NCBI GenBank assembly: GCA_965195345.1
Contig: OZ239628.1
Coordinates: 768,001 to 832,000, forward strand
Source of the DNA: an uncultured Thiomicrospira sp.
Lineage (GTDB): Bacteria > Pseudomonadota > Gammaproteobacteria > CAKMZV01
Reading direction: 5' to 3'
DNA: 64,000 nucleotides
In this document: in pieces, positions 1 to 26,021 of the stretch
Layout of the letters: each line of letters opens with the position of its first letter
How positions within the stretch are numbered: position 1 is the first letter of the stretch
Made by a program: the position numbers and the translations under genes
The notes under the pieces: model-generated
Database searches by the model: none
What the model was told of the DNA's origin: nothing
Seen by the model: the letters and a program-made list of their open reading frames with translations, nothing else

Positions 1-3000
1 CTTCTACCAATCAGATTATGCTTACCTCCGTTGCTAATGCCAACGGCACAGCTACACTTACAGTAAGCATTGTTGATAGTGGAAATCTCTCCGCTTCCAC
101 CGAAGTGGTGGTGATTGTCAACGCCGTCAATGATACGCCCACACTTACCTTTTCAACCACTCAACTTAGTCTAAATGCAAATTTCATGCCTCAGACAATA
201 GCAACAGCAACAGACGTTGATGATGCTTCCTTGCTCCTAACCTTTGCACTATCTGCAACCGATGTAGTACAAATAACGACGGTTGCTAATCGGTTTATAT
301 TAAATCCTATCACTAATGCTTTTGGCGACACAACTATCACCCTTGCAGTATCTGATGATGATGGTGCACGCTCTTCTTCTCAAATTTTCACAGTGCGCGT
401 TAATGCGCCCATTGCATCGACAACGCCTACGTTAGCTTTATCAACGCAGAACATCACTTTAGATGAAGACTTTGGTACTTTTATTATCAACACCACTGCA
501 ACCGATGCAGAAGATGGGACATTGTCAGTAACCGTATCTGGACAGGCTGGCTTACTAACCACTAATGCTACTACTGATCAAATTACGCTCACTTCCGTTG
601 CCGATGCTAATGGAACAGTTACGCTCAATGTGCGTGCTGTTGACAGTGGTGATCTTGCAGCCTCCACCGAAGTGGTGGTAATTATCAATGCCGTCAATGA
701 TAGTCCTACATTGACGCTATCAACAACTAACCTCAGCCTCAGTGAAGATTTTGGCACATTCATCATCAACACCACTGCAAGTGATGCAGAAGACGGAGCG
801 TTATTAGTGACCGTATCTGGACAGGCTGGCTTACTAACCACTAATGCTACTACTGATCAAATTACGCTCACTTCCATTGCCAATGTCAATGGAACAACCA
901 CACTCACTGTAAGTGCCACCGATAGTGACGCTATTACAGTCTCCACGGAAGTGATTGTTGTTGTCAATGCCGTCAATGATAGTCCTACATTGACGCTATC
1001 AACAACTAACCTTAGCCTCAGTGAAGATTTTGGCACTTTCATCATCAACACCACTGCAAGTGATGCAGAAGATGGTGTATTGTCTTTTACAGTATCTGGT
1101 CAAGATGCAAGTCTATTAACAGTTAGCACTTCTATCAATCAGATAATACTTACTTCTGTTGCTAATGCCAACGGAACAGTCACACTCACTGTAAGTGCTA
1201 CCGATAGTGATGCTCGTACAGTTACCACCGAAGTGGCTATCACCATCAACGCCATCAACGATACTCCGACATTGACTCTTGCTACAACAAATATTACCAT
1301 CGTTGAAAATGCCACTGCTCGTCAAACCATTTCCATTACTGATGTGGCGGATGTTGAGGGAAGCACACTTACTTTTTCAGTCATTGCCTCCACTTCTGTG
1401 TTTAGTAGTAATCCTACATCTGTAGTCTCCTTTTCAGACACAAGAATGATAACCTTCAGTAGACAAAGTACGACTGCTCAACTCTATTACACTCTACGAC
1501 CTGATAGCACAGGCACTGGCTTCATTCAAATTGCTCTAACAGATGGAATAGACACACAGGTTACAACTGTTACCGTGACTGTGACAGAAGTTAAAAATCC
1601 GCCCCAAATCACTCAAGACTTTAGAACACATCGCTTCTTTGATGCTCGTGCAACACGTGTAGGCGCTGTTGGAGGTGTCTTATTTGCAGCACGGGGTGTA
1701 TTCACTGGGTCGCTTGTATCAAGCTCAACAGATGGTACAGGGGATTTTAGCAATCAATTAAACTTTGCTCGCTCCTTAGGAGGGAGTTTGGCAGAACTGT
1801 ACACTGAGGAAACATACAATGCTTTATTGGGTTCTGTTTTGGTTGCTAATGGCGCTGCAACAGTAGGCTTTGATGATGATCGTTTTTGGCTTGGGCTCAC
1901 TGAAATACCCAATACTTTTGGCGCTTCTGTGCCAGATCAATCAGCATCAGATGATCGTTATTTTTGGTTATCTGGTCAACGGGTGTCACAAGGATTAGGC
2001 GCTGCTCGTGTAGACGTCCCAGGAGTATACATAGGTTGGGGGGCATCCGCCCCAGGTTCAGGTAGTCAGCCATGTGCGGATCTGATTCTTGGTGAAGAAG
2101 TGCCTGTAGGGTTCAGACCTTGGGCAAATGAAAGATGCGATGGATCGTCATTTGCTTTTTTCGATGCTCTAAAAGCGTTGATGCAGTTCCCAAATGGCTT
2201 ACCTACTACCTCCTCAATGGTTTTTCAAGCAAGGTCAGTAATCACACGTATTCGTTTAAGTGGTTATGATCTTGATGGTTCAGATAATGCACTATCTTGG
2301 CAAGTCACCGATGCATCTGGCGGTAGTATCACCACTTCCACGGTTTATAGCAGTACTGGCGCACAAACCTTAGAGATTGCTTACACCCCTGTGAGCAACT
2401 TTTCAGGCACTGCCACCCTTGTTGTAAGCTTAGATGATGGCGATAGTGCTACACAAAATAGTACTGCTCGTGTATTGGTGGTTAATAGCACACCGACTTT
2501 AACACTCTCAACCAATGCTGTCAGCTTAGATGAAGACTTTACCAGCTTCGTCATTAACACCACTGCAAGCAATGCAGCAGGGATAATTGACTTTAGTGTT
2601 AGCACAGGAAATGGCATTGTTCTTGTAACCACCTCTGCTAATGCAATTACACTGCAATCACTTCCGAATATAAATGGTACTGTAACCTTAACAGTCGTTG
2701 CGAGTAGTGGTCTTTTGACAGATACACAGACGATTAGCGTTGTGGTTAATCCAGTCAACGACACCCCCACGCTGTCTTTATCTGTGACGCAAAGGGTGCT
2801 TGCTCAAAACTTTGGCACTTTCGTCATCAACACCACTGCAACCGATGTGGAATCAGGCACATTGGGCTTTAGTGTCAGTACAGGTAATGGTATTGTCAAT
2901 GTAACCACCTCTGTCAATACGATTACTCTGCAATCACTCGCCAATGTCACAGGCGATGTGACGTTAACGGTTAGCGTAAGCGATGGACTATTGACGACGA

Positions 3001-5360
3001 CACAGTCCATTTTTATAACCGTTAGCAGGGCGGTGACGCTTGAAATATCCACAAATACTATTGTTTTAGATGAAGATTTTAATACCTTCATTATTAACAC
3101 CACTGCAACGGTTGCAGATGGGTCTACATTACCTATTTCAGTATTGCAGAGCACGCCTAATCTACTTGCATTTAGCACCATAACTGGGCGCATTACCCTT
3201 TCATCTATTGCGAATGCTAATGGAGTAACAACCCTTACCGTCAGTGCAACCAATCAAGGTGGATTAACGAACACGACAGAAGTGGCCATTACCATTAATT
3301 CCATTAATGATACTCCCACGCTCAGTTTATCAAATACAAACTTAACCTTGGCACCTAATAGCACTGGTTTGATAACTGCCTTTGGTGCGGATGTGGAAAC
3401 AAGCAGTGCCTCATTGGTCTATTCGGTGCAACAAAATCCATCTTTGTTACAAGTGAGTACACAAGGCAATGTCATCGTGCTGAGATCGAGTGCTACTGCA
3501 GGCTCGACCACTTTAGTGATAACCGTTACTGATGGCGGTAACTTAAGTGCTTCAGCAACCGCTCGAGTTACTGTTCTCTCTAATGTTTTGAATTTCGCGT
3601 TAAATGTTAAACGCATTGATTTTTCTTGGAATACATCCCTTACAGCAAATCATTACCGCATGCTTAGCAATGTCGATTTGAATGCTGGTGGTGGTTTTGT
3701 TGATGCCAGTAGCGCAAGTTTGGTGTTTGTACCGAATAGTACGAACATTATCAATACTACAGTCTCTGCGATAGTGGATGTAGCACGCTATCTTTCTACG
3801 GCTAATGGACCACAGTATCTGCTAGAAGCTTGTAGTAGTGTGGATAATTCAGCCTGTGCTAATCATGCACTACAAACTTTGAGCAATGCCCAGTTAGAAG
3901 GGTTGATTGGTTACTTCAAAGCATCTAACACAGGGGGTAGTGATCAATTTGGCACAGCTCTAGCAATAAGTGGTGATGGCAACACATTAGTTGTCGGTGC
4001 ACCATTTGAGGACAGCACCGCCACTGGCATCAACGGCGATGAAGTAAATAATAATTCAACTAACACTGGTGCGGTCTATGTTTTTGTGCGTAGTAGTACG
4101 GGCAGCTGGCGTCAACAAGCCTACGTCAAAGCCTCTAATACAGAAGCCAATGACCGGTTTGGTACAGCTGTATCGATAAGCGATAATGGTAATACGCTAA
4201 TTGTTGGTGCATTTGGGGAGGACAGCACCGCCACGGGCATCAACGGCGATCAATTAGATAATTCTGCAAGTGACTCTGGTGCAGCCTATGTTTTTGTACG
4301 CAACAGTGCCGGCACATGGAGTCAACAAGCCTATCTCAAAGCATCTAATACAGGAGCTGGAGATGAGTTTGGCCGAGGTGTTTCAATTAGTGGTGATGGT
4401 AACACACTGCTCATTAGCTCAATTGGAGAAGACAGCAATGCCACGGGTATCAACGGTGATCAAACAAACAATTCTACAAGTAACTCTGGTGCAGCTTATG
4501 TTTTTGTGCGCAGTAGTACAGATTCATCATGGAGCCAGCAAGCCTACATCAAAGCTTCCAATACAGACGCAGGTGATAGTTTTAGCTCAGCTGTATCGGT
4601 GAGTGATGATGGTAATACTTTAGTTATTGGGGCATCTTTTGAAGACAGCACCGCCACGGGCATTAACGGCGATCAAACAACTAATAGTGCAAGTGCATCT
4701 GGTGCAGCCTATGTTTTTGTACGCAGTAGTACAGATTCATCATGGAGTCAACAAGCCTACCTAAAAGCATCAAATACAGGTGTTAATGATCAATTTGGTA
4801 TAGCTGTATCAGTGAGTGATGATGGTAATACGCTTGTAGTCGGTGCATTATTTGAGGACAGCACTGCTACTGGCATTAATGGTAATCAAACAAGTAGTGG
4901 TGCAAATGATTCTGGTGCGGCCTATCTTTTTGTGCGCAGCAGCACGGGCACGTGGAGTCAACAAGCCTACATCAAAGCCTCTAATACACAGGGTGGTGAT
5001 ACATTTGGTAATTATGTGGCAATAAGCGGTGATGGTAATACGTTTGTAGTCAGTGCACCGAATGAGGACAGCAATGCCACGGGTATAAACGGTGATCAAG
5101 GCAATGTGAGCGGTTTGTCTAACTTCGGTGCAGCCTATCTCTTTGTGCGCAGCAGCACGGGTACATGGAGTCAACAAGCCTATGTCAAAGGCATAAATCT
5201 TGACGGATTCTTCGGTAGTTTATTAAGTAGTGTGTCGATGAGTGATGATGGTAAAACGCTTGCTACCGGTGCACCTAATGACGGACATTCTGCACGTGGT
5301 ATCAATGGTGGTCCAATAGACAATAATGCAGGCAGCTCTGGTGCGGTGTATTTATATTAG
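1..5360 (+). CDS. Giant adhesin-like protein, 5'-truncated by the window (cadherin-like repeats, C-type lectin-like domain, FnIII-like domain, 7-blade FG-GAP propeller)
   Basis: Frame is open from the window edge (tct acc aat cag att ATG at 18), so the Met at 18 is internal. Contains NAVNDxP repeats, an FWLGLT..YFWLSG..C..W..C module and seven KASN..FG..GAP repeats ending GAVYLY. Confidence 0.93.
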   Translation, partial: STNQIMLTSVANANGTATLTVSIVDSGNLSASTEVVVIVNAVNDTPTLTFSTTQLSLNANFMPQTIATATDVDDASLLLTFALSATDVVQITTVANRFILNPITNAFGDTTITLAVSDDDGARSSSQIFTVRVNAPIASTTPTLALSTQNITLDEDFGTFIINTTATDAEDGTLSVTVSGQAGLLTTNATTDQITLTSVADANGTVTLNVRAVDSGDLAASTEVVVIINAVNDSPTLTLSTTNLSLSEDFGTFIINTTASDAEDGALLVTVSGQAGLLTTNATTDQITLTSIANVNGTTTLTVSATDSDAITVSTEVIVVVNAVNDSPTLTLSTTNLSLSEDFGTFIINTTASDAEDGVLSFTVSGQDASLLTVSTSINQIILTSVANANGTVTLTVSATDSDARTVTTEVAITINAINDTPTLTLATTNITIVENATARQTISITDVADVEGSTLTFSVIASTSVFSSNPTSVVSFSDTRMITFSRQSTTAQLYYTLRPDSTGTGFIQIALTDGIDTQVTTVTVTVTEVKNPPQITQDFRTHRFFDARATRVGAVGGVLFAARGVFTGSLVSSSTDGTGDFSNQLNFARSLGGSLAELYTEETYNALLGSVLVANGAATVGFDDDRFWLGLTEIPNTFGASVPDQSASDDRYFWLSGQRVSQGLGAARVDVPGVYIGWGASAPGSGSQPCADLILGEEVPVGFRPWANERCDGSSFAFFDALKALMQFPNGLPTTSSMVFQARSVITRIRLSGYDLDGSDNALSWQVTDASGGSITTSTVYSSTGAQTLEIAYTPVSNFSGTATLVVSLDDGDSATQNSTARVLVVNSTPTLTLSTNAVSLDEDFTSFVINTTASNAAGIIDFSVSTGNGIVLVTTSANAITLQSLPNINGTVTLTVVASSGLLTDTQTISVVVNPVNDTPTLSLSVTQRVLAQNFGTFVINTTATDVESGTLGFSVSTGNGIVNVTTSVNTITLQSLANVTGDVTLTVSVSDGLLTTTQSIFITVSRAVTLEISTNTIVLDEDFNTFIINTTATVADGSTLPISVLQSTPNLLAFSTITGRITLSSIANANGVTTLTVSATNQGGLTNTTEVAITINSINDTPTLSLSNTNLTLAPNSTGLITAFGADVETSSASLVYSVQQNPSLLQVSTQGNVIVLRSSATAGSTTLVITVTDGGNLSASATARVTVLSNVLNFALNVKRIDFSWNTSLTANHYRMLSNVDLNAGGGFVDASSASLVFVPNSTNIINTTVSAIVDVARYLSTANGPQYLLEACSSVDNSACANHALQTLSNAQLEGLIGYFKASNTGGSDQFGTALAISGDGNTLVVGAPFEDSTATGINGDEVNNNSTNTGAVYVFVRSSTGSWRQQAYVKASNTEANDRFGTAVSISDNGNTLIVGAFGEDSTATGINGDQLDNSASDSGAAYVFVRNSAGTWSQQAYLKASNTGAGDEFGRGVSISGDGNTLLISSIGEDSNATGINGDQTNNSTSNSGAAYVFVRSSTDSSWSQQAYIKASNTDAGDSFSSAVSVSDDGNTLVIGASFEDSTATGINGDQTTNSASASGAAYVFVRSSTDSSWSQQAYLKASNTGVNDQFGIAVSVSDDGNTLVVGALFEDSTATGINGNQTSSGANDSGAAYLFVRSSTGTWSQQAYIKASNTQGGDTFGNYVAISGDGNTFVVSAPNEDSNATGINGDQGNVSGLSNFGAAYLFVRSSTGTWSQQAYVKGINLDGFFGSLLSSVSMSDDGKTLATGAPNDGHSARGINGGPIDNNAGSSGAVYLY
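1740..2195 (+). other. C-type lectin-like domain, copy 1 (approximate bounds)
   Basis: ARSLGGSLAEL..FWLGLTE..YFWLSG..YIGWGASAPG..PCADL..WANERC..ALMQF matches the CTLD motif order. Confidence 0.75.
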
Positions 5361-5607
5361 AATTTAAATAGCTAAAGGGCAACTAAATTTGCTTGATTAA
5401 TCCTGCCATTATGTATTCATCAGGCAGACAGGAATGCAGCTTTTCTGCTTAACGTTTATTGCTTTAAATGTTATAAACTGCTTGCATGTTTTCTCATGCT
5501 TTAATTTATAGTAAATCAAGTGTCACAGTTCAAAATATGAGCTTCTATCTCATACATAAACTGTAGTGAAATTTTAATTGCATAATTGAGTACATAAGGT
5601 GAATGAT
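5361..5607 (+). promoter_or_regulatory. Conserved intergenic spacer, type A leader
   Basis: Homologous to the other spacers. TTGCAT(5482)-N19-TATAGT(5507), hairpin TATGAG-N7-CTCATA, SD AAGGTGA before ATG 5608. Confidence 0.55.
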
Positions 5608-6161: not shown

Positions 6162-6162
6162 A

Positions 6163-6540: not shown

Positions 6541-6541
6541 A

Positions 6542-7108: not shown

Positions 7109-7258
7109 AGAGGATTGTATGATTACCTCTACCAATCAGATTATGCTTACCTCCGTTGCTAATGCCAACGGCATAGCTACACTTACAGTAAGCATTGTTG
7201 ATAGTGGAAATCTCTCCGCTTCCACCGAAGTGGTGGTGATTGTCAATGCCATTAATGA

Positions 7259-7384: not shown

Positions 7385-10300
7385 ATGGGATATATAAAGC
7401 GCTGGGCATTTCTGTTGCTGTTTGTTTTTCTGTCTGCCTGCGGTGGCGGTGGTGGTACAACACCTCCATCTACTAATACAGCACCAAGTTTAAGTCTCTC
7501 TGTCAATGCCGTAACGCTTGATGAAGATTTTGGTACCTTTATCATCAACACCACAGCAACCGATGCAGAAGATGGCGATCTTCCCGTTGCAGTGACTGGA
7601 CAAGATGCCAGTCTATTCGCCGTAACCACTTCTACCAATCAGATAATACTCACCTCCGTAGCTAATGCCAATGGCATAGCTACGCTTACAGTAAGCATTG
7701 TTGATAGTGGAAATCTCTCCGCTTCCACCGAAGTGGTGGTGATTGTCAATGCCGTCAATGATACGCCCACACTTACCTTTTCAACCACTCAATTTAATCT
7801 AAATGCAAACTTTACCCCGCAAACAATAGCAACAGCAACAGACGTTGATGATGCTTCCTTGCTCCTAACCTTTGCACTCTCTGCAACCGATGTAGTACAA
7901 ATAACGACGGTTGCTAATCGGTTTATATTAAATCCTATCACTAATGCTTTTGGCGAGACAACCATCACTTTAACAGCAACTGATAACAGCGGTAATCAGT
8001 CATCTCAAATTTTCACAGTGCGCGTTAACGGATTCCCTACATTAGCCTTATCAACGCAGCGTATCACTTTAGATGAAGACTTTGGCACTTTCGTCATCAA
8101 CATCACTGCAAGTGATGCAGAAGATGGCGTGCTTCCCGTTGCAGTGACTGGACAAGATGCCAGCCTATTCGCCGTAACCACTTCTACCAATCAGATAATA
8201 CTCACCTCCGTAGCTAATGCCAACGGAACAGCCACCCTTACTGTAAGCGCTAACGATAGTGAGAACCTCTCAGTCTCCACCGAAGTGGTGGTGATTGTCA
8301 ATGCCATTAATGATACGCCCACACTTACCTTTTCAACCACTCAATTTAGTCTAAATGCAAATTTCATGCCTCAGACAATAGCAACAGCAACAGACGTTGA
8401 TGATGCTTCCTTGCTCCTAACCTTTGCACTATCTGCAACCGATGTAGTACAAATAACGACGGTTGCTAATCGGTTTATATTAAATCCTATCACTAATGCT
8501 TTTGGCGAGACAACCATCACTCTAACAGCAACTGATAACAGCGGTAATCAGTCATCTCAAATTTTCACAGTGCGCGTTAACGGATTCCCTACATTAGCCT
8601 TATCAACGCAGCGTATCACTTTAGATGAAGACTTTGGCACCTTTATCATCAACACCACTGCCACCGATGTAGAAGATGGAGTGCTTCCCGTTGCAGTGAT
8701 TGGACAAGATGCCAGTCTATTCGCCGTAACCACTTCTACCGATCAGATTATGCTTACCTCCGTTGCCAATGCCAACGGAACAGTCACGCTTACAGTAAGC
8801 ATTGTTGATAGTGGAAATCTCTCCGCTTCCACCGAAGTGGTGGTGATTGTCAACGCCGTCAATGATACGCCCACACTTACCTTTTCAACCACTCAACTTA
8901 GTCTAAATGCAAATTTCATGCCTCAGACAATAGCAACAGCAACAGACGTTGATGATGCTTCCTTGCTCCTAACCTTTGCACTATCAGCAACCGATGTAGT
9001 ACAAATAACGACTGTTGCTAATCAGTTTATATTAAATCCTATCACTAATGCTTTTGGCGACACAACTATCACCCTAGCAGTATCTGATGCTGGTGTACGC
9101 TCTTCTTCTCAAGTTTTCACAGTGCGCGTTAACGCACCCACCGCATCGACAACACCTACGTTAGCTTTATCAACGCAGAATATCACTTTAGATGAAGACT
9201 TTGGTACTTTTATTATCAACACCACTGCCACCGATGCAGAAGATGGGACACTGTCAGTAACTGTATCTGGACAGGCTGGCTTATTAACCACTAATGCTAC
9301 TACTGATCAAATTACGCTCACTTCCGTTGCCAATGCTAATGGAACAGTTACGCTCAACGTACTTGCTGTTGACAGTGGTGGTCTTGCAGCCTCCACCGAA
9401 GTGGTGGTGATTATCAATGCCGTCAATGATAGTCCTACATTGACGCTATCAACAACTAACCTCAGCCTCAGTGAAGATTTTGGCACTTTCATCATCAACA
9501 CCACTGCAAGTGATGCAGAAGACGGAGCGTTATTAGTGATCGTATCTGGACAGGCTGGTTTACTAACCACTAATGCTACTACTGATCAAATTACGCTCAC
9601 TTCCGTTGCTAATGCCAACGGAACAACCACACTCACTGTAAGTGCCACCGATAGTGACGCTATTACAGTCTCCACCGAAGTGGTTGTTGTTGTCAATGCC
9701 GTCAATGATAGTCCTACATTGACGCTATCAACAACTAACCTTAGCCTCAGTGAAGACTTCGGCACTTTCATCATCAACACGACAGCAAGTGATGCAGAAG
9801 ATGGTGTGTTGTCTTTTACGGTATCTGGTCAAGATGCAAGTCTATTAACAGTTAGCACCTCTACCAACCAGATAATACTCACTTCCGTTGCTAATGCCAA
9901 CGGAACAACCACACTCACTGTAAGTGCTACCAATAGTGACACTATTACAGTTACCACCGAAGTGGCTATCACCATCAACGCCATCAACGATACTCCGACA
10001 TTGACTCTTGCTACAACAAATATTACCATCGTTGAAAATGCCACTGCTCGTCAAACCATTTCCATCACCAATGTAGCGGATGTTGAGGGAAGCACACTTA
10101 CTTTTTCAGTCATTGCCTCCACTTCTGTGTTTAGTAGTAATCCTACATCTGTAGTCTCCTTCTCAGACACAAGAATGATAACCTTCAGTAGACAAAGTAC
10201 TACAGCTCAACTCTATTACACTCTACGACCTGACAGCACAGGTACTGGCTTCATTCAAATCGCTCTCACAGATGGCATAGACACACAGTTTACAACTGTT

Positions 10301-13300
10301 ACCGTGACTGTGACAGAAGTTAAAAATCCGCCCCAAATCACCCAAGACTTTAGAACACATCGCTTCTTTGATGCGCGTGCAACACGTGTAGGCGCTGTTG
10401 GAGGTGTCTTATTTGCAGCACGAGGTGTATTTACAGAATCGACTGCAACAACCTCTACAGATGGTACGGGGAATTTTGGCAATCAATTAAACTTTGCCCG
10501 TTCCTTAGGGGGGAGTTTAGCCGAACTGTACACTGAGGAAACATATAACGCTTTATTGGGTTCTGTTTTGGTTGCCAATGGCGCTGCAACAGAAGGTCTT
10601 AATGATGATCGTTTTTGGCTTGGATTGACCGATATGCCTGACTCTTTTGGAGTCACCGTAGCAGATCAATCTTCGACAGATAACCGTTATTTTTGGTTAT
10701 CTGGTCAGCGAGTATCGCAAGGATCAGGTGGTACTCGTATAGACGTTCCAGGAGTATACATAGGCTGGGGGGCATCTGCTCCGGGTAATCAGGGTTGTGC
10801 TAATCTGATTATTGCTGACGACGTATCTGTAGCGCTCAGACCTTGGTCAAGTAATACATGCTTTGGAAATGTTTTTGACGCTATAAAAGCGTTGATGCAG
10901 TTTCCAAATGGCTTACCCACTACTTCTTCAATGCTTGTTCAAGCGAGGTTCCCCATCACACGCATTCGCTTAAGTGGTTATGATCTTGATGGTTCAGATA
11001 ATACATTGTCTTGGCAAGTTACCAATGCATCTGGCGGTAGCATCACTACTTCCACAGTTTATAGTAGTACTGGTGCACAAACCTTAGAGATTGCTTACAC
11101 CCCTGTGAGCAGTTTTGCAGGCACTGCAACCCTTGTTGTAAGCTTAGATGATGGCGATAGTGCTACACAAAATAGTACTGCCCGTGTATTAGTGGTTAAT
11201 AGTACACCGATCCTAATACTCTCAACCAATACTATTAGCTTAGATGAAGACTTTATCAGCTTCATCATTAACACCACTGCAACCGATGCAGCAGGGATAA
11301 CCGGCTTTAGTGTTAGCACAGGAAATGGCGTTGTTGATGTAACCACCTCTGCTAATGCAATTACGCTGCAATCACTTGCGAATATAAGTGGTACTGTAAC
11401 CTTAACAGTCGTTGCGGATAGTGGTCTTTTGGCAAATACACAGACGATTAGCGTTGTGGTTAATCCAGTCAACGACACTCCCACGCTGTCTTTATCTGTG
11501 ACGCAAAGGGCGCTTGCTCAAGATTTTGGCACTTTTGTTATCAACACCACTGCAACCGATGTGGAATCAGGCCCATTGGGCTTTAGTGTCAGTACAGGTA
11601 ATGGTATTGTCAATGTGACAACCTCTGTCAATACGATTACTCTGCAATCACTCGCTAATGTCATAGGCAATGTGACGTTAACGGTTAGCGTAAGCGATGG
11701 ACTATTGACGACGACACAGTCGATTTTTATAACTGTTAGTAGGGTGTTTACGCTTGAAGTATCGACAAACACTATCGTTTTAGATGAAGATTTTAATACC
11801 TTTATCATTAACACCACTGCAACGGCTGCAGATGGGACTATATTACCTATTTCAGTATTGCAGAGCACGCCTAATTTACTTACATTCAATGCCACAACTG
11901 GGCGTATTACCCTCTCATCTATTGCGAATGTGAATGGTGTAACGACCCTTACCGTCAGTGCAACCAATCAAGGTGGATTAACGAACACGACAGAAGTAGC
12001 CATTACCATTAATTCCATTAATGATACTCCAACGCTCAGTTTATCAAATACAAACTTAATCTTGGCATCTAATAGCACTGGTTTGATAACTGCCTTTGTC
12101 ACGGATGTGGAAACAAGCAGTGCCTCATTGACCTTTTCGGTACAACAAAATCCATCTTTGTTACAGGTGAGTACACAAGGCAATGTCATCGTGCTGAGAT
12201 CGAATGCTACTGCAGGCTCAACCACTTTAGTGATAACTGTTACTGATGGCGATGGTTTAAGCACTTCAGCAACCGCTCGAGTTACTGTTCTATCAAATGT
12301 TTTGAATATTGCTTTAAATGTTAAGCGCATTGATTTTTCTTGGAGCACACTTCCTACAGCAAATCATTACCGCATGCTTAGCAATGTCGATTTGAATGCT
12401 GGTGGAGGTTTTGTTGATGCCAGTAGCGCAAGCTTAGTTTTTATACCGAATAGTACGAATATTATCAATACTACAGTCTCTGCGATAGTGGATGTAGCAC
12501 GCTATCTTTCTACGGCTAATGGACCACAGTACCTGCTAGAAGCTTGTAGTAGTGTGGACAACTCCGTTTGTTCTAATCTTGCGCAACAAACTTTGAGCAA
12601 TGCCCAGTTAGAAGGGCTGATTGGTTATTTCAAAGCATCTAATACAGATATTGATGATAGGTTTGGTCGTAATGTAGCAATAAGCGGTGATGGCAACACA
12701 TTAGTTGTCGGTGCACCACTTGAGGACAGCACTGCCACTGGCATCAACGGCGATCAATTAGACAATTCTGCAAGTAACTCTGGTGCAGCCTATGTTTTCG
12801 TGCGCAGTAGTACGGGCAGCTGGCGTCAACAAGCATACATTAAAGCCTCTAATACTGGAAGTTTTGACCAGTTTGGTGCAGCTGTATCGATAAGCGATAA
12901 TGGTAATACGCTAATTGTTGGTGCGTTTGGGGAGGACAGCACCGCCACGGGTATCAACGGCGATGAAGCAATTAATAGTGCAAGTGCCTCTGGTGCAGCT
13001 TATGTTTTTGTGCGCAGTAGTACGGCGGGCACATGGAGTCAACAAGCTTATCTCAAAGCATCTAATACAGGAGCTGGAGATAATTTTGGCCGAGGTGTTT
13101 CAATTAGTGGTGATGGTACTACGCTAATTGTTGGTGCACCTTTCGAAGACAGCACCGCCACGGGCATCAACGGCGATGAAGCAAGTAATGGGGCATCTGC
13201 ATCTGGTGCAGCTTATGTTTTTGTGCGCAGTAGTACAGATAGTACGTGGAGCCAACAGGTCTACCTTAAAGCATCAAACACAGGGGGAAATGATCAATTT

Positions 13301-14083
13301 GGTACAGCTGCATCAATAAGCAGTAATGGTAATACGATCATTGTTGGTGCACGTGGTGAAGGCAGCAGTGCTATGGGTATCAACGGTGATGAATCCAGCG
13401 ATACTGCTTTTCTTGCCGGTGCAGTCTATGTTTTTGTACGCAGTAGTACAGATTCATCATGGAGTCAACAAGCCTACCTTAAAGCATCAAATACAGATGG
13501 AGATGATCAATTTGGTGTAGCTGTATCAGTGAGTGATGATGGTAATACGCTTGTAGTAGGTGCATTATTTGAGGACAGCACTGCTACTGGCATTAATGGC
13601 AATCAAACAAGCAGTGGTGCAGATGGCTCTGGTGCAGCCTATCTTTTTGTGCGCAGCAGTACCGGCACGTGGAGTCAACAAGCCTACATCAAAGCCTCTA
13701 ATACAGGAGCTGATGATTCATTTGGTAATTATGTGTCAATAAGCGGTGATGGTAATACGTTTGTAGTCAGTGCACCGAATGAGGACAGTATTGCCACGGG
13801 TATAAACGGTGATCAAGGCAATGTGAGCATTCTTTCCAACTTCGGTGCAGCCTATCTCTTTGTGCGCAGCAGCACAGGCACATGGAGTCAACGAAGCTAT
13901 ATCAAAGCCTCAAATACTGATGCAAACACATTCGGCAGTATTTCATTTGGTAGTGCGTCGATAAGTGATGATGGTAAAACGCTTGCTGTCGGTGGATTTG
14001 GGGAAGGAAGTAGTGCCCGTGGTATCAATGGCGATCAAACAGACCTTAGTGCCTCTGGCTCTGGTGCAGTGTATTTATATTAG
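7385..14083 (+). CDS. Giant lipoprotein adhesin, 2232 aa (cadherin-like stalk, one CTLD, FnIII-like, FG-GAP propeller)
   Basis: LSAC-G5 lipobox, repeats, CTLD motifs, 7 FG-GAP blades. Confidence 0.95.
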   Translation: MGYIKRWAFLLLFVFLSACGGGGGTTPPSTNTAPSLSLSVNAVTLDEDFGTFIINTTATDAEDGDLPVAVTGQDASLFAVTTSTNQIILTSVANANGIATLTVSIVDSGNLSASTEVVVIVNAVNDTPTLTFSTTQFNLNANFTPQTIATATDVDDASLLLTFALSATDVVQITTVANRFILNPITNAFGETTITLTATDNSGNQSSQIFTVRVNGFPTLALSTQRITLDEDFGTFVINITASDAEDGVLPVAVTGQDASLFAVTTSTNQIILTSVANANGTATLTVSANDSENLSVSTEVVVIVNAINDTPTLTFSTTQFSLNANFMPQTIATATDVDDASLLLTFALSATDVVQITTVANRFILNPITNAFGETTITLTATDNSGNQSSQIFTVRVNGFPTLALSTQRITLDEDFGTFIINTTATDVEDGVLPVAVIGQDASLFAVTTSTDQIMLTSVANANGTVTLTVSIVDSGNLSASTEVVVIVNAVNDTPTLTFSTTQLSLNANFMPQTIATATDVDDASLLLTFALSATDVVQITTVANQFILNPITNAFGDTTITLAVSDAGVRSSSQVFTVRVNAPTASTTPTLALSTQNITLDEDFGTFIINTTATDAEDGTLSVTVSGQAGLLTTNATTDQITLTSVANANGTVTLNVLAVDSGGLAASTEVVVIINAVNDSPTLTLSTTNLSLSEDFGTFIINTTASDAEDGALLVIVSGQAGLLTTNATTDQITLTSVANANGTTTLTVSATDSDAITVSTEVVVVVNAVNDSPTLTLSTTNLSLSEDFGTFIINTTASDAEDGVLSFTVSGQDASLLTVSTSTNQIILTSVANANGTTTLTVSATNSDTITVTTEVAITINAINDTPTLTLATTNITIVENATARQTISITNVADVEGSTLTFSVIASTSVFSSNPTSVVSFSDTRMITFSRQSTTAQLYYTLRPDSTGTGFIQIALTDGIDTQFTTVTVTVTEVKNPPQITQDFRTHRFFDARATRVGAVGGVLFAARGVFTESTATTSTDGTGNFGNQLNFARSLGGSLAELYTEETYNALLGSVLVANGAATEGLNDDRFWLGLTDMPDSFGVTVADQSSTDNRYFWLSGQRVSQGSGGTRIDVPGVYIGWGASAPGNQGCANLIIADDVSVALRPWSSNTCFGNVFDAIKALMQFPNGLPTTSSMLVQARFPITRIRLSGYDLDGSDNTLSWQVTNASGGSITTSTVYSSTGAQTLEIAYTPVSSFAGTATLVVSLDDGDSATQNSTARVLVVNSTPILILSTNTISLDEDFISFIINTTATDAAGITGFSVSTGNGVVDVTTSANAITLQSLANISGTVTLTVVADSGLLANTQTISVVVNPVNDTPTLSLSVTQRALAQDFGTFVINTTATDVESGPLGFSVSTGNGIVNVTTSVNTITLQSLANVIGNVTLTVSVSDGLLTTTQSIFITVSRVFTLEVSTNTIVLDEDFNTFIINTTATAADGTILPISVLQSTPNLLTFNATTGRITLSSIANVNGVTTLTVSATNQGGLTNTTEVAITINSINDTPTLSLSNTNLILASNSTGLITAFVTDVETSSASLTFSVQQNPSLLQVSTQGNVIVLRSNATAGSTTLVITVTDGDGLSTSATARVTVLSNVLNIALNVKRIDFSWSTLPTANHYRMLSNVDLNAGGGFVDASSASLVFIPNSTNIINTTVSAIVDVARYLSTANGPQYLLEACSSVDNSVCSNLAQQTLSNAQLEGLIGYFKASNTDIDDRFGRNVAISGDGNTLVVGAPLEDSTATGINGDQLDNSASNSGAAYVFVRSSTGSWRQQAYIKASNTGSFDQFGAAVSISDNGNTLIVGAFGEDSTATGINGDEAINSASASGAAYVFVRSSTAGTWSQQAYLKASNTGAGDNFGRGVSISGDGTTLIVGAPFEDSTATGINGDEASNGASASGAAYVFVRSSTDSTWSQQVYLKASNTGGNDQFGTAASISSNGNTIIVGARGEGSSAMGINGDESSDTAFLAGAVYVFVRSSTDSSWSQQAYLKASNTDGDDQFGVAVSVSDDGNTLVVGALFEDSTATGINGNQTSSGADGSGAAYLFVRSSTGTWSQQAYIKASNTGADDSFGNYVSISGDGNTFVVSAPNEDSIATGINGDQGNVSILSNFGAAYLFVRSSTGTWSQRSYIKASNTDANTFGSISFGSASISDDGKTLAVGGFGEGSSARGINGDQTDLSASGSGAVYLY
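10470..10908 (+). other. C-type lectin-like domain, copy 2 (approximate bounds)
   Basis: FWLGLTD..YFWLSG..GCANL..WSSNTC..ALMQF. Confidence 0.75.
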
Positions 14084-14343: not shown

Positions 14344-17337
14344 ATGGGATACATAAAGCGCTGGGCATTTCTGTTGCTGTTTGTTTTTCTGTCTGCCTGC
14401 GGTGGCGGTGGTGGTACAACACCTCCATCTACTAATACAGCACCAAGTTTAAGTCTCTCTGTCAATGCCGTAACGCTTGATGAAGATTTTGGTACCTTTA
14501 TCATCAACACCACAGCAACCGATGCAGAAGATGGCGATCTTCCCGTTGCAGTGACTGGACAAGATGCCAGTCTATTCGCCGTAACCACTTCTACCAATCA
14601 GATTATGCTTACCTCCGTTGCTAATGCCAACGGCATAGCTACACTTACAGTAAGTATTGTTGATAGTGGAAATCTCTCCGCTTCCACCGAAGTGGTGGTG
14701 GTTGTCAATGCCGTCAATGATACGCCCACACTTACCTTTTCAACCACTCAATTTAGTCTAAATGCAAATTTCATGCCTCAGACAATAGCAACAGCAACAG
14801 ACGTTGATGATGCTTCCTTACTCCTAACCTTTGCACTATCTGCAACCGATGTGGTACAAATAACGACGGTTGCTAATCGGTTTATATTAAATCCTATCAC
14901 TAATGCTTTTGGCGAGACAACCATCACTCTAACAGCAACTGATAACAGCGGTAATCAGTCATCTCAAATTTTCACAGTGCGCGTTAACGGATTCCCTACA
15001 TTAGCCTTATCAACGCAGCGTGTCACTTTAGATGAAGACTTTGGTGCCTTTATCATCAACACCACTGCCACCGATGCAGAAGATGGCGTGCTTCCCGTTG
15101 CAGTGACTGGACAAGATGCCAGTCTATTCGCCGTAACCACTTCTACCGATCAGATTATGCTTACCTCCGTTGCCAATGCCAACGGAACAGTCACGCTTAC
15201 AGTAAGCATTGTTGATAGTGGAAATCTCTCCGCTTCCACCGAAGTGGTGGTGGTTGTCAATGCCGTCAATGATACGCCAACGTTAAGTTTATCAAGTACA
15301 AACTTAACCTTATTGCCCAATAGTACTGGTAGGATAACTGCCTTTGTCACGGATGTGGAAACAAGTAGTGCCTCATTGACCTTTTCGGTACAACAAAATC
15401 CATCTTTGTTACAGGTGAGCACACCAGGCAATGTCATCGTGCTGAGATCGAATGCTACTACAGGCTCAACCACTTTAGTGATAACCGTTACTGATGGCGA
15501 TGGTTTAAGCACTTCAGCAACCGCTCAAGTTACTGTTAGAATTGGTGTTTTGAATATTGCTTTAAATGTTAAGCGCATTGATTTTTCTTGGGAAAACTTC
15601 CCTGCAGCAAATCATTACCGCATGCTCAGTAATGTCGATTTAAACACTGGTGGTGGTTTTGTTGATGCCAGTAGCGCAAGCTTAGTTTTTATACCGAATA
15701 GCACGAATATTATCAATACCACAGTCTCTGCGATAGTGGATGTAGCAGGCTATCTTTCTGCGGCTAATGGGCCACAGTATCTGCTACAAGCTTGTACCAG
15801 TGTGGACAACTCCGTTTGTTCTGATCTTGCGGAACAAACTCTGAGCAATGCCCAGTTAGAGGGGGTGATTGGTTATTTCAAAGCATTAAACACAGGGGAA
15901 AATGATCAATTTGGCACGGCTGTAGCAATAAGCGGTGATGGCAACACATTAGTTGTCGGTGCACCATTTGAAGACAGTACTGCCACCGGAATAAATGGCG
16001 ATCAAACAAACAATGGTGCAAGTAATGCTGGTGCAGTCTATGTATTTGTGCGCAACAGTGCAGGCAGCTGGCGTCAACAAGCCTACGTCAAAGCCTCTAA
16101 TACAGAAGCCAATGATCGGTTTGGTACAGCTGTATCGATAAGCGATAATGGTAATACGCTAATTGTTGGTGCATTTGGGGAGGACAGCACCTCCACGGGC
16201 ATCAACGGCAATGAGACAAGTAATGGAGCATCTGGCTCTGGTGCAGCCTATGTTTTTGTGCGCAGTAGTACGGCGGGCACATGGAGTCAACAAGCCTATC
16301 TCAAAGCATCTAATACAGGAGCTGGAGATGATTTTGGCCGAGACGTTTCAATTAGTGGTGATGGTAATACGCTAATTGTTGGTGCACCTTTCGAAGACAG
16401 CACCGCCACGGGCATCAACGGCGATGAGGCAATTAATAGTGCAAGTGGCTCTGGTGCAGCTTATGTTTTTGTGCGCAGTAGTACAGATTCATCATGGAGC
16501 CAACAGGTCTACCTTAAAGCATCAAACACAGGGGGAAATGATCAATTTGGTACAGTTGCATCAATAAGCAGTAATGGTAATACGATAGTTGTTGGTGCAC
16601 GTTTGGAAGCCAGCACTGCCACGGGCATCAACGGCAATGAAACAAGTAATGGAGCACCTGGCTCTGGTGCAGCCTATGTTTTTGTGCGTAGTAGTACAGA
16701 TTCATCATGGAGTCAACAAGCCTACCTTAAAGCATCAAATACAGATCAAGATGATCGATTTGGTACAGCTGTATCGGCGAGTGATGATGGTAATACGCTT
16801 ATAGTCGGTGCATTACTTGAGGACAGCACTGCTACTGGCATTAATGGTAATCAAACAAGCAATGGTGCAAGTAACTCTGGTGCAGCCTATGTTTTTGTGC
16901 GTAGTAGTACAGATTCATCATGGAGTCAACAAGCCTACCTTAAAGCATCAAACACAGATGCAAATGATACATTTGGTAATTATGTGGCAATAAGCGGTGC
17001 TGGTAATACCCTTATAGTCAGTGCGCCGAATGAGGACAGTAATGCCACGGGTATAAACGGCGATCAATCAATAAATGTGAGCAGTCCGCCTGACTTAGGT
17101 GCAGCCTATCTCTTTGTGCGCAGTAGCACGGGTACATGGAGTCAACAAGCCTACATCAAAGCCTCAAATAATGATACAAACACATCCGGCAATAATTTAT
17201 TTGGTAGTGCATCGATAAGTGATGATGGTAAAACGCTTGCTGTCGGTGCACCATTTGAGGACAGCGCCGCCACCGGAATAAATGGTGATCAAACAGACAA
17301 TAGTCTAAATAATGCTGGTGCAGTGTATTTATATTAG
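14344..17337 (+). CDS. Lipoprotein adhesin, 997 aa, short stalk, no CTLD
   Basis: Lipobox, ~4 Ig-like repeats, FnIII-like domain, 7 FG-GAP blades. Confidence 0.95.
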   Translation: MGYIKRWAFLLLFVFLSACGGGGGTTPPSTNTAPSLSLSVNAVTLDEDFGTFIINTTATDAEDGDLPVAVTGQDASLFAVTTSTNQIMLTSVANANGIATLTVSIVDSGNLSASTEVVVVVNAVNDTPTLTFSTTQFSLNANFMPQTIATATDVDDASLLLTFALSATDVVQITTVANRFILNPITNAFGETTITLTATDNSGNQSSQIFTVRVNGFPTLALSTQRVTLDEDFGAFIINTTATDAEDGVLPVAVTGQDASLFAVTTSTDQIMLTSVANANGTVTLTVSIVDSGNLSASTEVVVVVNAVNDTPTLSLSSTNLTLLPNSTGRITAFVTDVETSSASLTFSVQQNPSLLQVSTPGNVIVLRSNATTGSTTLVITVTDGDGLSTSATAQVTVRIGVLNIALNVKRIDFSWENFPAANHYRMLSNVDLNTGGGFVDASSASLVFIPNSTNIINTTVSAIVDVAGYLSAANGPQYLLQACTSVDNSVCSDLAEQTLSNAQLEGVIGYFKALNTGENDQFGTAVAISGDGNTLVVGAPFEDSTATGINGDQTNNGASNAGAVYVFVRNSAGSWRQQAYVKASNTEANDRFGTAVSISDNGNTLIVGAFGEDSTSTGINGNETSNGASGSGAAYVFVRSSTAGTWSQQAYLKASNTGAGDDFGRDVSISGDGNTLIVGAPFEDSTATGINGDEAINSASGSGAAYVFVRSSTDSSWSQQVYLKASNTGGNDQFGTVASISSNGNTIVVGARLEASTATGINGNETSNGAPGSGAAYVFVRSSTDSSWSQQAYLKASNTDQDDRFGTAVSASDDGNTLIVGALLEDSTATGINGNQTSNGASNSGAAYVFVRSSTDSSWSQQAYLKASNTDANDTFGNYVAISGAGNTLIVSAPNEDSNATGINGDQSINVSSPPDLGAAYLFVRSSTGTWSQQAYIKASNNDTNTSGNNLFGSASISDDGKTLAVGAPFEDSAATGINGDQTDNSLNNAGAVYLY

Positions 17338-17583: not shown

Positions 17584-20500
17584 ATGAAAATGAACCATTT
17601 AAAGTGCTGGGGATTTCTATTATCACTCGTTTTTCTATCTGCCTGTGGTGGCGGTGGCGATTCAACACCTCCGTCTACTAATGCAGCACCAAGCTTAAGC
17701 CTCTCTGTCAACGCCGTAACGCTTAATGAAGATTTTGGCACTTTTGTCATCAATACCACTGCTACCGATGCAGAAGATGGGACACTGTCAGTAACTGTAT
17801 CTGGACAGGCTGGTTTGCTAACCACTGATGTCACCACTGGTCGAATTACCCTAACTTCTATTGCCAATGCTAACGGCACAGCTACACTTACTGTACGTGC
17901 TACCGATAGCGGAAACCTCTCTGCTACTACCGAAGTGGTTGTTGCCATTAACGCCATCAATGATGCACCTACATTGGTACTATCAACGACCGCCATTAGT
18001 CTCAATGAAGACTTTGGTGCCTTTGTCATCAACGCTACCGCGACCGATGTGGATGATGGAGCACTGTTAGTAACCGTGACTGGGCAGGCCGGCTTGCTAA
18101 CCACTAATATTACCACTGATCAAATTACCTTAACTTCCATTGCCAATGCCAACGGAACAGCCACCCTTACTGTAAGCGCTAACGATAGTGGGAACCTCTC
18201 AGTCTCCACCGAAGTGCTGGTGGTTATCAATGCCATTAATGATACGCCCACACTTACCTTTTCAACCACTCAATTTAGTCTAAATGCAAATTTTACATCT
18301 CAGACAATAGCAACAGCAACAGACGTTGAAGATGCTTCCTTGCTCCTAACCTTTGCACTATCTGCAACCGATGTAGTACAAATAACGACGGTTGCTAATC
18401 GGTTTATATTAAATTCTATCACTGATGCTTTTGGCGAGACAACCATCACTCTAACAGCAACTGATAACAGCGGTAATCAGTCATCTCAAATTTTCACAGT
18501 GCGCGTTAACGGATTCCCTACATTAGCCTTATCAACGCAGAATATCACTTTAGATGAAGACTTCGGCACTTTCATCATCAACACCACTGCAACCGATGCA
18601 GAAGATGGCGTGCTTCCCGTTGCAGTGACTGGACAAGATGCCAGTCTGTTCGCCATAACCACTTCTGCCAATCAGATTATGCTTGCCTCCATTGCTAATG
18701 CTAACGGCACAGCTACGCTTACAGTAAGCATTGTTGATAGTGGAAATCTCTCCGCTTCTACCGAAGTGGTGGTGATTGTCAATGCCGTCAATGATACGCC
18801 CACACTTACCTTTTCAACCACTCAATTTAGTCTAAATGCAAATTTCACATCTCAGACAATAGCAACAGCAGCAGACGTTGATGATACTTCCCTGCTCCTA
18901 ACCTTTGCACTATCTGCCACCGATGTAGTACAAATAACGACGGTTGCTAATCAGTTTATATTAAATCCTATTATCAATGCTTTTGGCGACGCAACCATCA
19001 CCCTAGTAGTATCTGATGCTGGTGTGCGCTCTTCTTCTCAAGTTTTCACGGTGCGCGTTAACACACCCACCGCATCGACAACACCTACATTAGCCTTATC
19101 AACGCAGAACATCACTTTAGACGAAGACTTCGGCACTTTTATTATCAACACTACTGCAAGTGATGCAGAAGATGGGGCGTTATTAGTGACCGTATCTGGA
19201 CAGGCTGGTTTACTAACCACTAATGTCACCACTGATCAAATTACGCTCACTTCCGTTTCCAATGCCAATGGAATAGTTACGCTCAACGTACTTGCTATTG
19301 ACAGTGGTGATCTTGCAGTCTCCACCGAAGTGGTGGTGACCATCAATGCCGTCAATGATAGTCCTACATTGACGCTATCAACAACTAACCTCAGCCTCAG
19401 TGAAGATTTTGGTACTTTCGTCATCAACACCACTGCAAGTGATGCAGAAGACGGAGCGTTATTAGTGACCGTGTCTGGACAGGCTGGTTTACTAACCACT
19501 AATGCTACTACTGATCAAATTACGCTCACTTCCGTTGCTAATGCCAACGGAATAACCACACTCACTGTAAGTGCCACCGATAGTGACGCTATTACAGTCT
19601 CCACCGAAGTTGTGGTGGTTATCAATGCCGTCAATGACACTCCCACGCTGTCTTTATCTGTGACGCAAAGGACGCTTGCTCAAAACTTTGGCACTTTCGT
19701 CATCAATGCCACTGCAACCGATGTGGAATCAGGCACATTGGGCTTTAGTGTCAGTACAGGTAATGGCATTGTTGATGTAACAACCTCTGTCAATACGATT
19801 ACTCTGCAATCACTCGCCAATGTCATAGGCGATGTGACGTTAACGGTTAGCGTAAGCGATGGACTATTGACGGCGACACAGTCCATTTTTATATCCGTTA
19901 GCAGCGGTCCGACGTTTGAGTTGTCCACAAACACTATCGTTTTAGATGAAGACTTTACTACCTTTACCATCAACACCACTGCAACGGCTGCAGATGGGGC
20001 TATATTACCTACTTCAGTATTGCAGAGCACGCCTAATCTACTTACGTTTAGCACCACAACTGGGCGCATTACCCTCTCATCTATTGCGAATGTGAATGGA
20101 GTAACGACCCTTACCGTCAGTGCAACCAATCAAGGTGGAATAACGAATACGACAGAAGTAGCCATTACCATTAATTCCATTAATGATACTCCCACGCTCA
20201 GTTTATCAAGTACAAACTTAACCTTGGCACCTAATAGCACTGGTTTGATAACTGCCTTTGGTGCAGATTTGGAAACAAGCAGTGCCTCACTAGTCTATTC
20301 TGTACAACAAAATCCATCTTTGTTACAGTTGAGTACACAAGGCAATGTTATCGTACTGAGATCGACTACTACTGCAGGCTCGACCACTTTAGTGATAACC
20401 GTTACTGATGGCGGTAACTTAAGTGCTTCAGCAACCGCTCGAGTTACTGTTCTCTCTGGCGTTTTGAATATTGCTTTGAATGTTAAACGCATTAACTTTT

Positions 20501-25400: not shown

Positions 25401-26021
25401 GGCACATGGAGTCAACAAGCCTACCTTAAAGCATCAAATACAGATATAGATGATCAATTTGGTGTAGCTGTATCAGTGAGTGGTGATGGTAATACGCTCA
25501 TTGTTGGTACAAGAGATGAAGGCAGCAATGCGACGGGTATCAACGGTGATGAATCCAGCAATACTGCTATTCGCTCTGGTGCAGCCTATGTTTTTGTACG
25601 CAGTAGTGCGGGCAGTTGGAGCCAACAAGCCTACATCAAAGCCTCTAATACAGAAGCAAATGATCGGTTTGGTGAAGCTGTAGCAATAAGCAGTAATGGT
25701 AATACGCTAATTGTTGGTGCAGGTGCTGAAGGCAGCAGTGCTACGGGTATCAACGGGGGGCAAACAAATGGTTCTATTTCTGCTGGTGCAGGTGCATCCT
25801 ATCTTTTTGTTCGTGGCAGCACAGGCACATGGAGTCAACAAGCTTACATCAAGGCTTCTAATACAGAAGGTTTTGCTCAATTTGGTGGCGTTGTTTCAAT
25901 AAGCGGTGATGGTAAAACACTCGCTGTCGGTGCATCTTTCGAAGATAGCGGTGCCACCGGCATCAATGGCGATCAAACAGACAATAGTCAAGGTCTTGCT
26001 GGTGCAGTGTATTTATATTAG
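22482..26021 (+). CDS. Lipoprotein adhesin, 1179 aa, no CTLD
   Basis: Lipobox + G7, repeats, 7 FG-GAP blades. Confidence 0.95.
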   Translation: MGYIKRWAFLLLFVFLSACGGGGGGGTTPPSTNTAPSLSLSVNAVTLDEDFGTFVINTTATDAEDGTLSVTVSGQAGLLTTDVTTGRITLTSVANANGTTTLTVRATDSGNLSATTEVAVTINAINDAPTLILSTTAISLNEDFGTFIINATATDVDDGALLVTVTGQAGLLTTNITTDQITLTSIANANGTATLTVSANDSENLSVSTEVVVTINAVNDSPTLTLSTTNLSLSEDFGTFIINTTASDVEDGVLSFTVSGRDASLLTVSTSINQIMLTSVANATGTTTLTVSATDSGNLSASTEVVVVVNAVNVTPTLSLSVTQRALVQDFGTFVINTTATDVESGPLGFSVSTGNGVVDVTTSVNTITLQSLANVIGAVTLTVSVSDGLLTATQSIFITVSRAFTLEVSTNTIVLDEDFNTFIINTTATAADGTILPISVTQSTPNLLTFSTITGRITLSSIANVNGVTTLTVSAANQSGLTNTTEVAITINSVNDTPTLSLSNTNLILAPNSTGLITAFGTDVETSSASLIYSVQQNPSLLQVSTPGNVIVLRSNATAGSTTLVITVMDGDGLSTSATAQVTVLSNVLNVNLNVKRINFSWNTSPTANHYRMLSNVDLNAGGGFVDASSASLVFIPNSTNIINTTVSAIVDVAGYLSTANGPQYLLQACTSVDNSACANHALQTLSNAQLEGLIGYFKASNTGGNDLFGLAVEISGDGNTLVVGALGEDSTATGINGDQLDNSASNSGAVYVFVRNNAGTWSQQAYVKASNTDIDDQFGFAVSISDNGNTLIVGVPFEGSTATGINGDQLDNSASDSGAAYVFVRSSTGTWSQQAYIKASNTEDFDNFGRAVSVTADGNTLAVGAFFEDSDATGIDGDQANNGSGVNSNSGAAYVFVRSSTGTWSQQAYIKASNSGDRDEFGFAVSMSGDGNTLIVGASLEDSTATGINGDQLDNSASNSGAAYVFVRSSTGTWSQQAYLKASNTDIDDQFGVAVSVSGDGNTLIVGTRDEGSNATGINGDESSNTAIRSGAAYVFVRSSAGSWSQQAYIKASNTEANDRFGEAVAISSNGNTLIVGAGAEGSSATGINGGQTNGSISAGAGASYLFVRGSTGTWSQQAYIKASNTEGFAQFGGVVSISGDGKTLAVGASFEDSGATGINGDQTDNSQGLAGAVYLY

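Follow-up and report, generated by a model that had tools for sequence, protein, structure and literature searches.

The stretch of DNA analyzed here comprises 64,000 nucleotides of contig OZ239628.1 from an uncultured Thiomicrospira sp. (positions 768,001 to 832,000; hereafter the window, to which all coordinates refer). Its ORF list shows a tandem array of 12 long, co-oriented open reading frames (ORFs), designated G1 to G12, separated by spacers that are mostly alike (219-264 bp). Each predicted protein has the same order of parts: a lipoprotein signal, an Ig-like stalk, a neck domain of 101 amino acids (aa) and a C-terminal propeller, the head. G1 is truncated at its 5' end by the start of the window, so that 11 N-termini lie inside it; all 11 carry the lipobox LSAC, identified by pattern match only, which indicates a type II signal peptide. 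In G2 to G12 the lipobox cysteine is followed by a glycine run of 3 to 9 residues, in frame every time. The stalks ahead of the heads range from 237 to 2071 aa. The neck domain of G1, which gave no family match, is one that we take to be fibronectin type III-like (Fn3-like). At least three further paralogues, P0004, P0005 and P0009, are present on the 1.92-Mb parent contig. Our central finding concerns the heads, where some 8 residues of each blade are probably under diversifying selection.

An earlier note on this DNA, made from the sequence alone, reported that all intact C-termini have exactly seven blades despite very different stalks, and this is correct: each of the 12 comprises 7 units of 60-76 aa, or 84 blades in total, with a last unit of 58-61 aa and an N-terminal strand that closes the propeller. 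The conserved framework that it described was also recovered. With degenerate patterns, KASN was found in 68 of the 84 blades, SxDGNT-type motifs in 64, EDS-type in 64, GING-type in 71 and GAAYxFVR-type in 63, while FG occurs in 79, GA in 69 and the strand-3 glycine in all 84. All five of the KASN..FG examples that it quoted are present, although GFFDE stands behind KTTNP, not KASN. The constancy of seven blades, true as it is of the array, is unremarkable. Related loci (72, from many phyla) have 7 blades in 96 of 105 complete matches, and 120 protein matches, four of them the window's own, include 56 with 7 blades, 47 with 14 and 17 with other counts; both searches were seeded with 7-blade queries and so favor 7-blade relatives. 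The 14-blade relatives are two propellers in tandem. Both 7 and 14 blades are on record for bacterial integrin-type propellers (PMC3192720, cited here, like the other PMC articles below, from excerpts). Seven blades is thus the family norm and not a trait particular to the array; it needs no special explanation, because relatives across phyla have 7 or 14, and we rejected it as a selected feature.

The heads are members of the FG-GAP_2 (PF14312) propeller family. All 4 genes scanned match the Pfam model at 163-195 bits, against a cut-off of 23, in 6-7 stretches each, and relatives number in the thousands across phyla. An AlphaFold model of the G1 head (pLDDT 91.7, pTM 0.92) has seven four-strand blades with the expected strand order. 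The solved folds closest to it are those of integrin alpha propellers (Foldseek E 3e-14; Z 33.7, rmsd 3.1, 368 residues aligned), but the WD40 protein Ciao1 reaches Z 31.9, within 2 Z units of integrin alpha, and the fold search alone is therefore not integrin-specific. A sequence search of solved structures returned no matches to either a single head or a 111-sequence profile. The strand order places KASN..FG in the 4-1 loop and GA..GA in the 2-3 loop, both on one side of the up-and-down blade; this assignment to a face follows from strand topology, and is firm beside the strand ends and weaker in the middle of the 22-residue 2-3 loop. In integrins the 4-1 and 2-3 loops form the face that meets the ligand and the beta-I domain of the beta subunit (PMC3255974), in agreement with the earlier note.

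The residues from KASN to FG and from GINGD to GA do differ in nearly every blade, as had been claimed: of the 84 blades, 74 are distinct in the first string, and of the 78 that could be parsed for the second, 68 are. We defined hypervariable columns as those with an entropy of at least 2.2 bits over the 84 blades. They make up 14 of 35 columns in the top loops (4-1 and 2-3), 0 of 9 in the bottom loops and 0 of 26 in the strands, so that all 14 lie on one face, as assigned by topology, and are not scattered. Taken whole, the top loops do not exceed the bottom loops in variability (Mann-Whitney p=0.14), since 21 of the 35 top-loop columns fall short of the hypervariable threshold. Both of the segments singled out in advance are variable, but they leave out three positions that rank among the most variable: the residue behind FG and the two behind GA. 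Loop lengths are mostly fixed, with the modal length found in 76/84 and 62/84 blades (22 aa for the 2-3 loop). The diversity is therefore point-like, at about 8 positions per blade, and the description of it as resembling the complementarity-determining regions (CDRs) of antibodies did not survive. The variable positions, 56 per head, are interleaved with invariant residues. The eight blade columns concerned, 9, 10, 12, 15, 31, 32, 50 and 51, are termed the core-8; they are placed identically in all 84 blades, and their combination is unique in 84 of 84. The set comes from the data of other genomes, in which these columns recurred, but it was fixed after the results for the window were known. 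Five bottom-loop columns are as tolerant across phyla as the top columns, yet conserved in the array.

Several heads have a net acidic core surface, down to -9, and those of G8, G11 and G12 are the most acidic of the array. Blades 2-4 of these three are atypical and of varying length (60-75 aa), with the long conserved motif of the 2-3 loop lost or rebuilt, and it is possible that they represent a distinct specificity class.

The cleanest test for selection used three non-overlapping, in-register sister pairs, G11/G12, G1/G2 and G9/G10, which together include 6 of the 12 genes. The amino acid has changed at 111 of their 167 core codons. Where both sisters encode the same residue, the codons differ silently in 12 of 134 cases next to core codons, in 66 of 613 cases in the strands and in 7 of 56 cases among the core codons themselves. 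A codon model with a free local synonymous rate gave a dN/dS ratio (omega) of 3-5.5 (likelihood ratio statistic 13-15, p 1e-4 to 3e-4), and the observed statistic was not attained in any of 600 neutral simulations that allowed for rate heterogeneity. If patches had been imported from random blades, 26.5 silent differences would be expected in adjacent codons, compared to the 12 seen (p=0.0005).

Other pair sets gave weaker values, and over all of them tree-free dN/dS at core sites ranged from 1.4 to 5.5, with p from 1e-4 to 0.1. When sites were picked from distant homologues, pairwise codon models returned omega of 0.21-0.27 at six bottom-face sites, whereas 11 sites of the top face gave 1.4-2.3, with p between 0.015 and 0.098 in 8 settings. 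For the core-8 in the window, 33/42 framework-matched pairs gave 1.4 and 2.0 (p 0.067, 0.021); with a synonymous rate shared with the interleaved conserved codons, such pairs gave 1.8-2.2 (p at most 6e-5). In the window, the six other variable columns have omega of 0.7-0.9 and look close to neutral. With tree-based site mixtures, 13 top-face columns were flagged, and the statistics exceeded those of all 22 simulations under a mild null. Single-rate site models (twice the log-likelihood difference, 34-265) were rejected as evidence, as a null with codon-specific rates reproduces them (18/54).

The signal recurs outside the window. Two 2.1-Mb gammaproteobacterial chromosomes from metagenome-assembled genomes (MAGs), OZ255843 and OZ255827, have tandem arrays of their own of the same lipoprotein type (loci L008 and L022 in the former; L019, L021 and L041 in the latter), in which one ORF is at least 3895 aa long. 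Sites defined in the window gave omega of 4.9 in OZ255843 (p 2e-6) and 4.8 in OZ255827 (p 1e-5), signals stronger than the window's own. In a quick tree, the copies of both form a sister expansion to the window clade (SH-aLRT support 98-100); because they intermix with each other, the two chromosomes count as one replicate.

In array-type genes the heads diverge faster than the stalks. G11 and G12 are 98.6% identical in the stalk and 74.7% in the propeller. G9 and P0006, putative orthologues from close relatives (orthology by similarity only), are 90.3% identical in the stalk and 66.5% in the propeller, and differ at 44 of 56 core sites. The dispersed and divergent paralogue P0009 of the same contig was compared with P0010, from another contig; their propellers are 98.1% identical. 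This pair serves as a slow-evolving internal control, the array-type genes of the same two contigs being strongly different.

A number of observations weigh against positive selection and the reading built on it. The whole KASN-FG and GINGD-GA loops have dN/dS of 0.75-1.3, not above 1. The earlier note had named scattered variable sites or a drift-like loop dN/dS as outcomes that would speak against it, and half of this was found, since whole loops do not exceed 1. In tree-free tests, some 8 sites of each blade do change faster than the neutral expectation. In the window the signal is borderline for sets of 17, 30 or 33 pairs selected by identity (at the p values given above). Multi-nucleotide changes, which codon models handle imperfectly, account for 67 of the 111 core changes in the sister pairs. 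Under a harsh null that combines codon-specific rates with heavy mosaicism, 18/54 and 6/54 simulations match the real tree-based statistics, and for this reason we do not count the tree-based tests as proof. The profile of entropy is shared by the whole family, with a Spearman correlation of 0.83 to 588 blades from distant genomes, so that variability by itself proves nothing. For the sites defined in the window, neither a Kofleriaceae MAG (omega 1.4, p=0.06) nor Paraliomyxa (1.1, p=0.6) gave a significant result, and in the tree-based run omega was clearly above 1 in only 3 of 7 other genome sets. Finally, the sponge-symbiont protein CAD42 (cadherin plus FG-GAP), which has a similar mix of domains, a likeness by domains and not by sequence comparison, had no effect on sponge uptake in the excerpted account (PMC13747020).

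Recombination among the heads is detected by a test of the pairwise homoplasy index type (p=0.0005). The nearest relative of a blade is one of the same position for 73 of the 84, and a grouping of blades by gene meets with strong rejection. The approximately unbiased test also rejects a strict grouping by position (p=0.003; 2000 replicates, fast search), but the Shimodaira-Hasegawa test does not (0.36). A test for recombination within blades was not significant (p=0.34). The longest exact cross-register tract, 70 nt, is shared by blade 1 of G2 and blade 4 of G5, and falls outside the top 12 of a run-length test; that test left 4 of 3024 cross-register pairs below 0.05 once corrected, each of them confounded by the conserved framework. 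Such tracts, which did not stand out statistically, hint at a possible shuffling of loop cassettes between blades. The blades average about 70% identity. Differences at core sites comprise A/G 77, C/T 48, A/T 44, G/T 35, C/G 27 and A/C 24. No recombinase or reverse transcriptase ORF was found in the window. The routes to diversity appear to be duplication, recombination that is in register but for an occasional swap of blades, and selection acting on point changes, and not assembly in the manner of CDRs, because the spectrum is not adenine-specific, lengths are mostly fixed, the core-8 is distinct in every blade and the blades mostly keep their register.

Other features of the window are as follows (Table 1). 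Tandem-95 repeats scored above the cut-off in the stalks of 2 of the 3 genes scanned. Most of the G8 stalk (40822-46800) is a long run of near-identical 94-aa repeats, which suggests recent tandem amplification. The stalks of G1, G2, G6, G7 (two copies), G11 and G12 contain a 199-aa insert that is not Ig-like. It has WLGL-like and WxG motifs and two cysteines, varies in patches in its C-terminal half, and matches C-type lectins weakly (E 0.03) in 2 of 7 copies; the model of it was unreliable (pLDDT 38.5), and a fold search with that model was uninformative. Between G1 and G2, positions 5608-7260 hold a relic 13th gene copy. Its lipoprotein start is homologous to the array until about 5844 and is followed by about 1.28 kb of unrelated DNA (39% G+C) holding two ORFs, one weakly rhodanese-like (6163-6540) and one of the LysE family (6530-7108); the 3' part is a 135-bp stalk fragment joined to the upstream spacer of G2. 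A phage search of this region gave weak transporter matches only, and a promoter scan of 5300-7450 showed no excess relative to shuffled sequence. The relic may reflect either an insertion or a mis-assembly.

Table 1. Features of the lipoprotein array, in window coordinates
Feature	Position	Strand	Remarks
G1 stalk, 5'-truncated	18..3608	+	tandem-95/Ig-like repeats; possible C-type-lectin-like insert 1602-2198
G1 neck domain	3609..3911	+	conserved, 101 aa, beta-rich
G1 seven-blade FG-GAP_2 beta-propeller	3912..5357	+	unit starts 3912, 4122, 4332, 4545, 4758, 4968, 5181 (summed from unit lengths)
G1 blade 1, 4-1 loop	3936..3956	+	core variable codons, columns 9, 10, 12, 15, around conserved D and FG
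G1 blade 1, 2-3 loop start	4002..4007	+	core variable codons 31, 32, immediately behind GA
G1 blade 1, 2-3 loop end	4059..4064	+	core variable codons 50, 51, ahead of invariant strand-3 Gly
G2 lipoprotein	7385..14083	+	propeller 12626-14083; sister of G1
G3 lipoprotein	14344..17337	+	propeller 15874-17337
G4 lipoprotein	17584..22233	+	propeller 20788-22233
G5 lipoprotein	22482..26021	+	propeller 24573-26021
G6 lipoprotein	26265..32402	+	propeller 30963-32402
G7 lipoprotein	32622..40571	+	propeller 39138-40571
G8 lipoprotein	40822..48588	+	propeller 47158-48588; blades 2-4 atypical, like G11 and G12
G9 lipoprotein	48853..51324	+	propeller 49867-51324; shortest stalk
G10 lipoprotein	51574..54540	+	propeller 53110-54540; sister of G9
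G11 lipoprotein	54788..59260	+	propeller 57830-59260
G12 lipoprotein	59509..63972	+	propeller 62551-63972; against G11, stalk 98.6% and propeller 74.7% identical
199-aa stalk insert copies	1602-2198, 10331-10912, 28668-29249, 34212-34808, 36840-37424, 55511-56107, 60232-60828

The reading that we favor, and consider moderately probable, is that the array is a repertoire of membrane-anchored, stalked binding proteins whose heads are under diversifying selection. Each gene supplies a lipoprotein signal and a variable number of Ig-like spacers, both legible in its translation, and a head predicted with high confidence to be a seven-blade, integrin-alpha-like propeller. The framework is kept by purifying selection and by the recombination seen among paralogues, while about 8 top-face residues per blade, beside the strand ends and 56 to a head, would be diversified by positive selection, a step that the tests support without placing it beyond doubt. 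From the architecture we infer that the heads are exposed at the cell surface and bind ligands. Each would then present its own binding surface at its own height above the cell, and the likeliest targets would be variable molecules displayed on the surface by a host or by neighboring cells. Glycans are possible ligands, since related VCBS-supercluster propellers bind sugars via loop DA' (PMC8023676). We put forward more tentatively, as a possibility that we hold with some reserve, that this lineage of gammaproteobacteria with small genomes keeps on its cell surface a germline, anticipatory receptor repertoire, arrays of integrin-like propellers in which recombination and selection on 56 residues per head yield paralogue-specific fits to host or community ligands.

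An identical signal of positive selection would be produced if the heads did one conserved job and their top-face residues diversified to evade phage receptor-binding proteins, host immune receptors or grazers. Such a job might fall to the invariant EDS..GING stretch, a conserved motif amid the variable sites of the 2-3 loop, and the top face, probably directed away from the stalk, would be the most exposed. Escape accords less well with variation that is limited to strand-end residues of one face while the exposed bottom loops (omega 0.2-0.3) and the long stalks are conserved, and the window gives no sign of one-at-a-time switching, each gene having its own similar upstream spacer; we regard escape as unlikely, though it is the main rival. 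Neutral drift of the loops under relaxed constraint, with gene conversion homogenizing the framework and inflating dN/dS, would account for whole-loop omega near 1, for the near-neutral secondary columns, for the raised synonymous rate of the loops in some fits, for the outcome under the harsh null and for the tolerance of the same columns family-wide. It does not account for the conservation in the array of bottom-face columns that are equally tolerant across phyla, nor for the deficit of adjacent silent differences (12/134 against 26.5 expected), the failure of all 600 neutral simulations to reach the sister-pair statistic or the recurrence of the signal in OZ255843 and OZ255827, and appears rather improbable.

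The heads might instead bind other heads or partners of the same strain, with diversification conferring strain identity as in fungal het genes. The closest evolutionary analogue of the array, the HNWD family discussed below, is an allorecognition system (PMC1805685), and the putative orthologues G9 and P0006 differ at most of their core sites. The window has no partner, toxin or signaling gene, however, and net acidic core surfaces would weakly disfavor like-to-like binding, so that we think self or kin recognition very unlikely. Targeted mutagenesis by a diversity-generating retroelement would also place point hypervariability within an invariant scaffold, but the changes involve all base pairs and are not adenine-specific, and without a reverse transcriptase ORF in the window we rejected this candidate as scarcely credible. 

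If a germline, anticipatory repertoire of the kind put forward above exists, the array is a prokaryotic, extracellular counterpart of the fungal HNWD receptors, and the bacterial FG-GAP_2 family, widespread but uncharacterized, gains a function as a programmable binding platform on the integrin ligand face without a beta subunit. As candidate specificity determinants, the array singles out some 8 residues in each blade, on the face equivalent to that of integrins, and G11 and G12, with near-identical stalks and different heads, are a natural test pair. Confirmation would connect the origin of the ligand face of integrin alpha with bacterial proteins of recognition, would establish convergence with fungal non-self receptors, and would suggest a natural 7-fold binder scaffold.

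Antibody CDRs and the variable lymphocyte receptors (VLRs) of lampreys likewise combine a conserved scaffold with a variable binding face. The array differs from both in that its diversity is germline and spread across paralogues, its loop lengths are mostly fixed, and no machinery for somatic assembly or hypermutation was seen. Metazoan integrin alpha subunits share the fold of the heads (Z about 31-34), and the loops that vary in the array are those of the ligand and beta-I face in integrins; the array proteins are without thigh or calf domains, transmembrane helix or cytoplasmic tail, all 12 ending at strand 3 of blade 7, and no integrin beta subunit was found in the window. The DxDxDG calcium loop between strands 1 and 2 occurs in none of the 84 array blades. 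The strict integrin motif, as excerpted (PMC3192720), includes FG, GA and the segment-C glycine, all present here, and a cage of aromatic-aromatic-G-aromatic with a conserved proline and a proline-to-glycine spacing of 2-15. The flanking aromatics of this cage were found in only 2/84 and 7/84 blades and the proline in 38/84, and against that spacing stands a modal 2-3 loop of 22 aa, so that the heads depart from the strict motif; the aromatics that are conserved in integrins are replaced in the array by hypervariable residues, at positions among its most variable.

Bacterial FG-GAP_2 propellers resemble the array in having 7 (or 14) blades, N-terminal strand closure, and a signal with Ig-like domains. 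The array differs from them in its lack of the DxDxDG calcium loop, its longer 2-3 loop with a conserved motif of its own, its 12-gene tandem arrangement and the probable selection on its top face. The function of bacterial integrin-like propellers was given as unknown in 2011 (Chouhan et al., PMC3192720, in the excerpted part), and a literature search, with most subscription journals outside its scope, did not turn up any account of bacterial FG-GAP propellers under selection.

The closest parallel is with the HNWD genes of Podospora, among them het-d and het-e, in which four codons per WD repeat, in the top-face d-a and b-c loops, are under selection (Paoletti et al. 2007, PMC1805685); similar selection has been extended to ANK and TPR repeats (PMC4986451). 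As far as these excerpts go, HNWD proteins are cytoplasmic fungal NOD-like receptors (NLRs) with NACHT domains and near-identical repeats in variable number, whereas the array encodes bacterial lipoproteins whose blades are less alike, mostly keep register and are fixed at seven, and the 4 genes scanned gave no Pfam match to HET or NACHT domains. Within the same limits, the two systems share about 70-84 propeller repeats in 10-12 paralogues, possibly an exchange of repeats, and a few selected codons per repeat that flank conserved ones in the same two top-face loops. By this analogy, the array, though not a member of HNWD, appears to function most like it.

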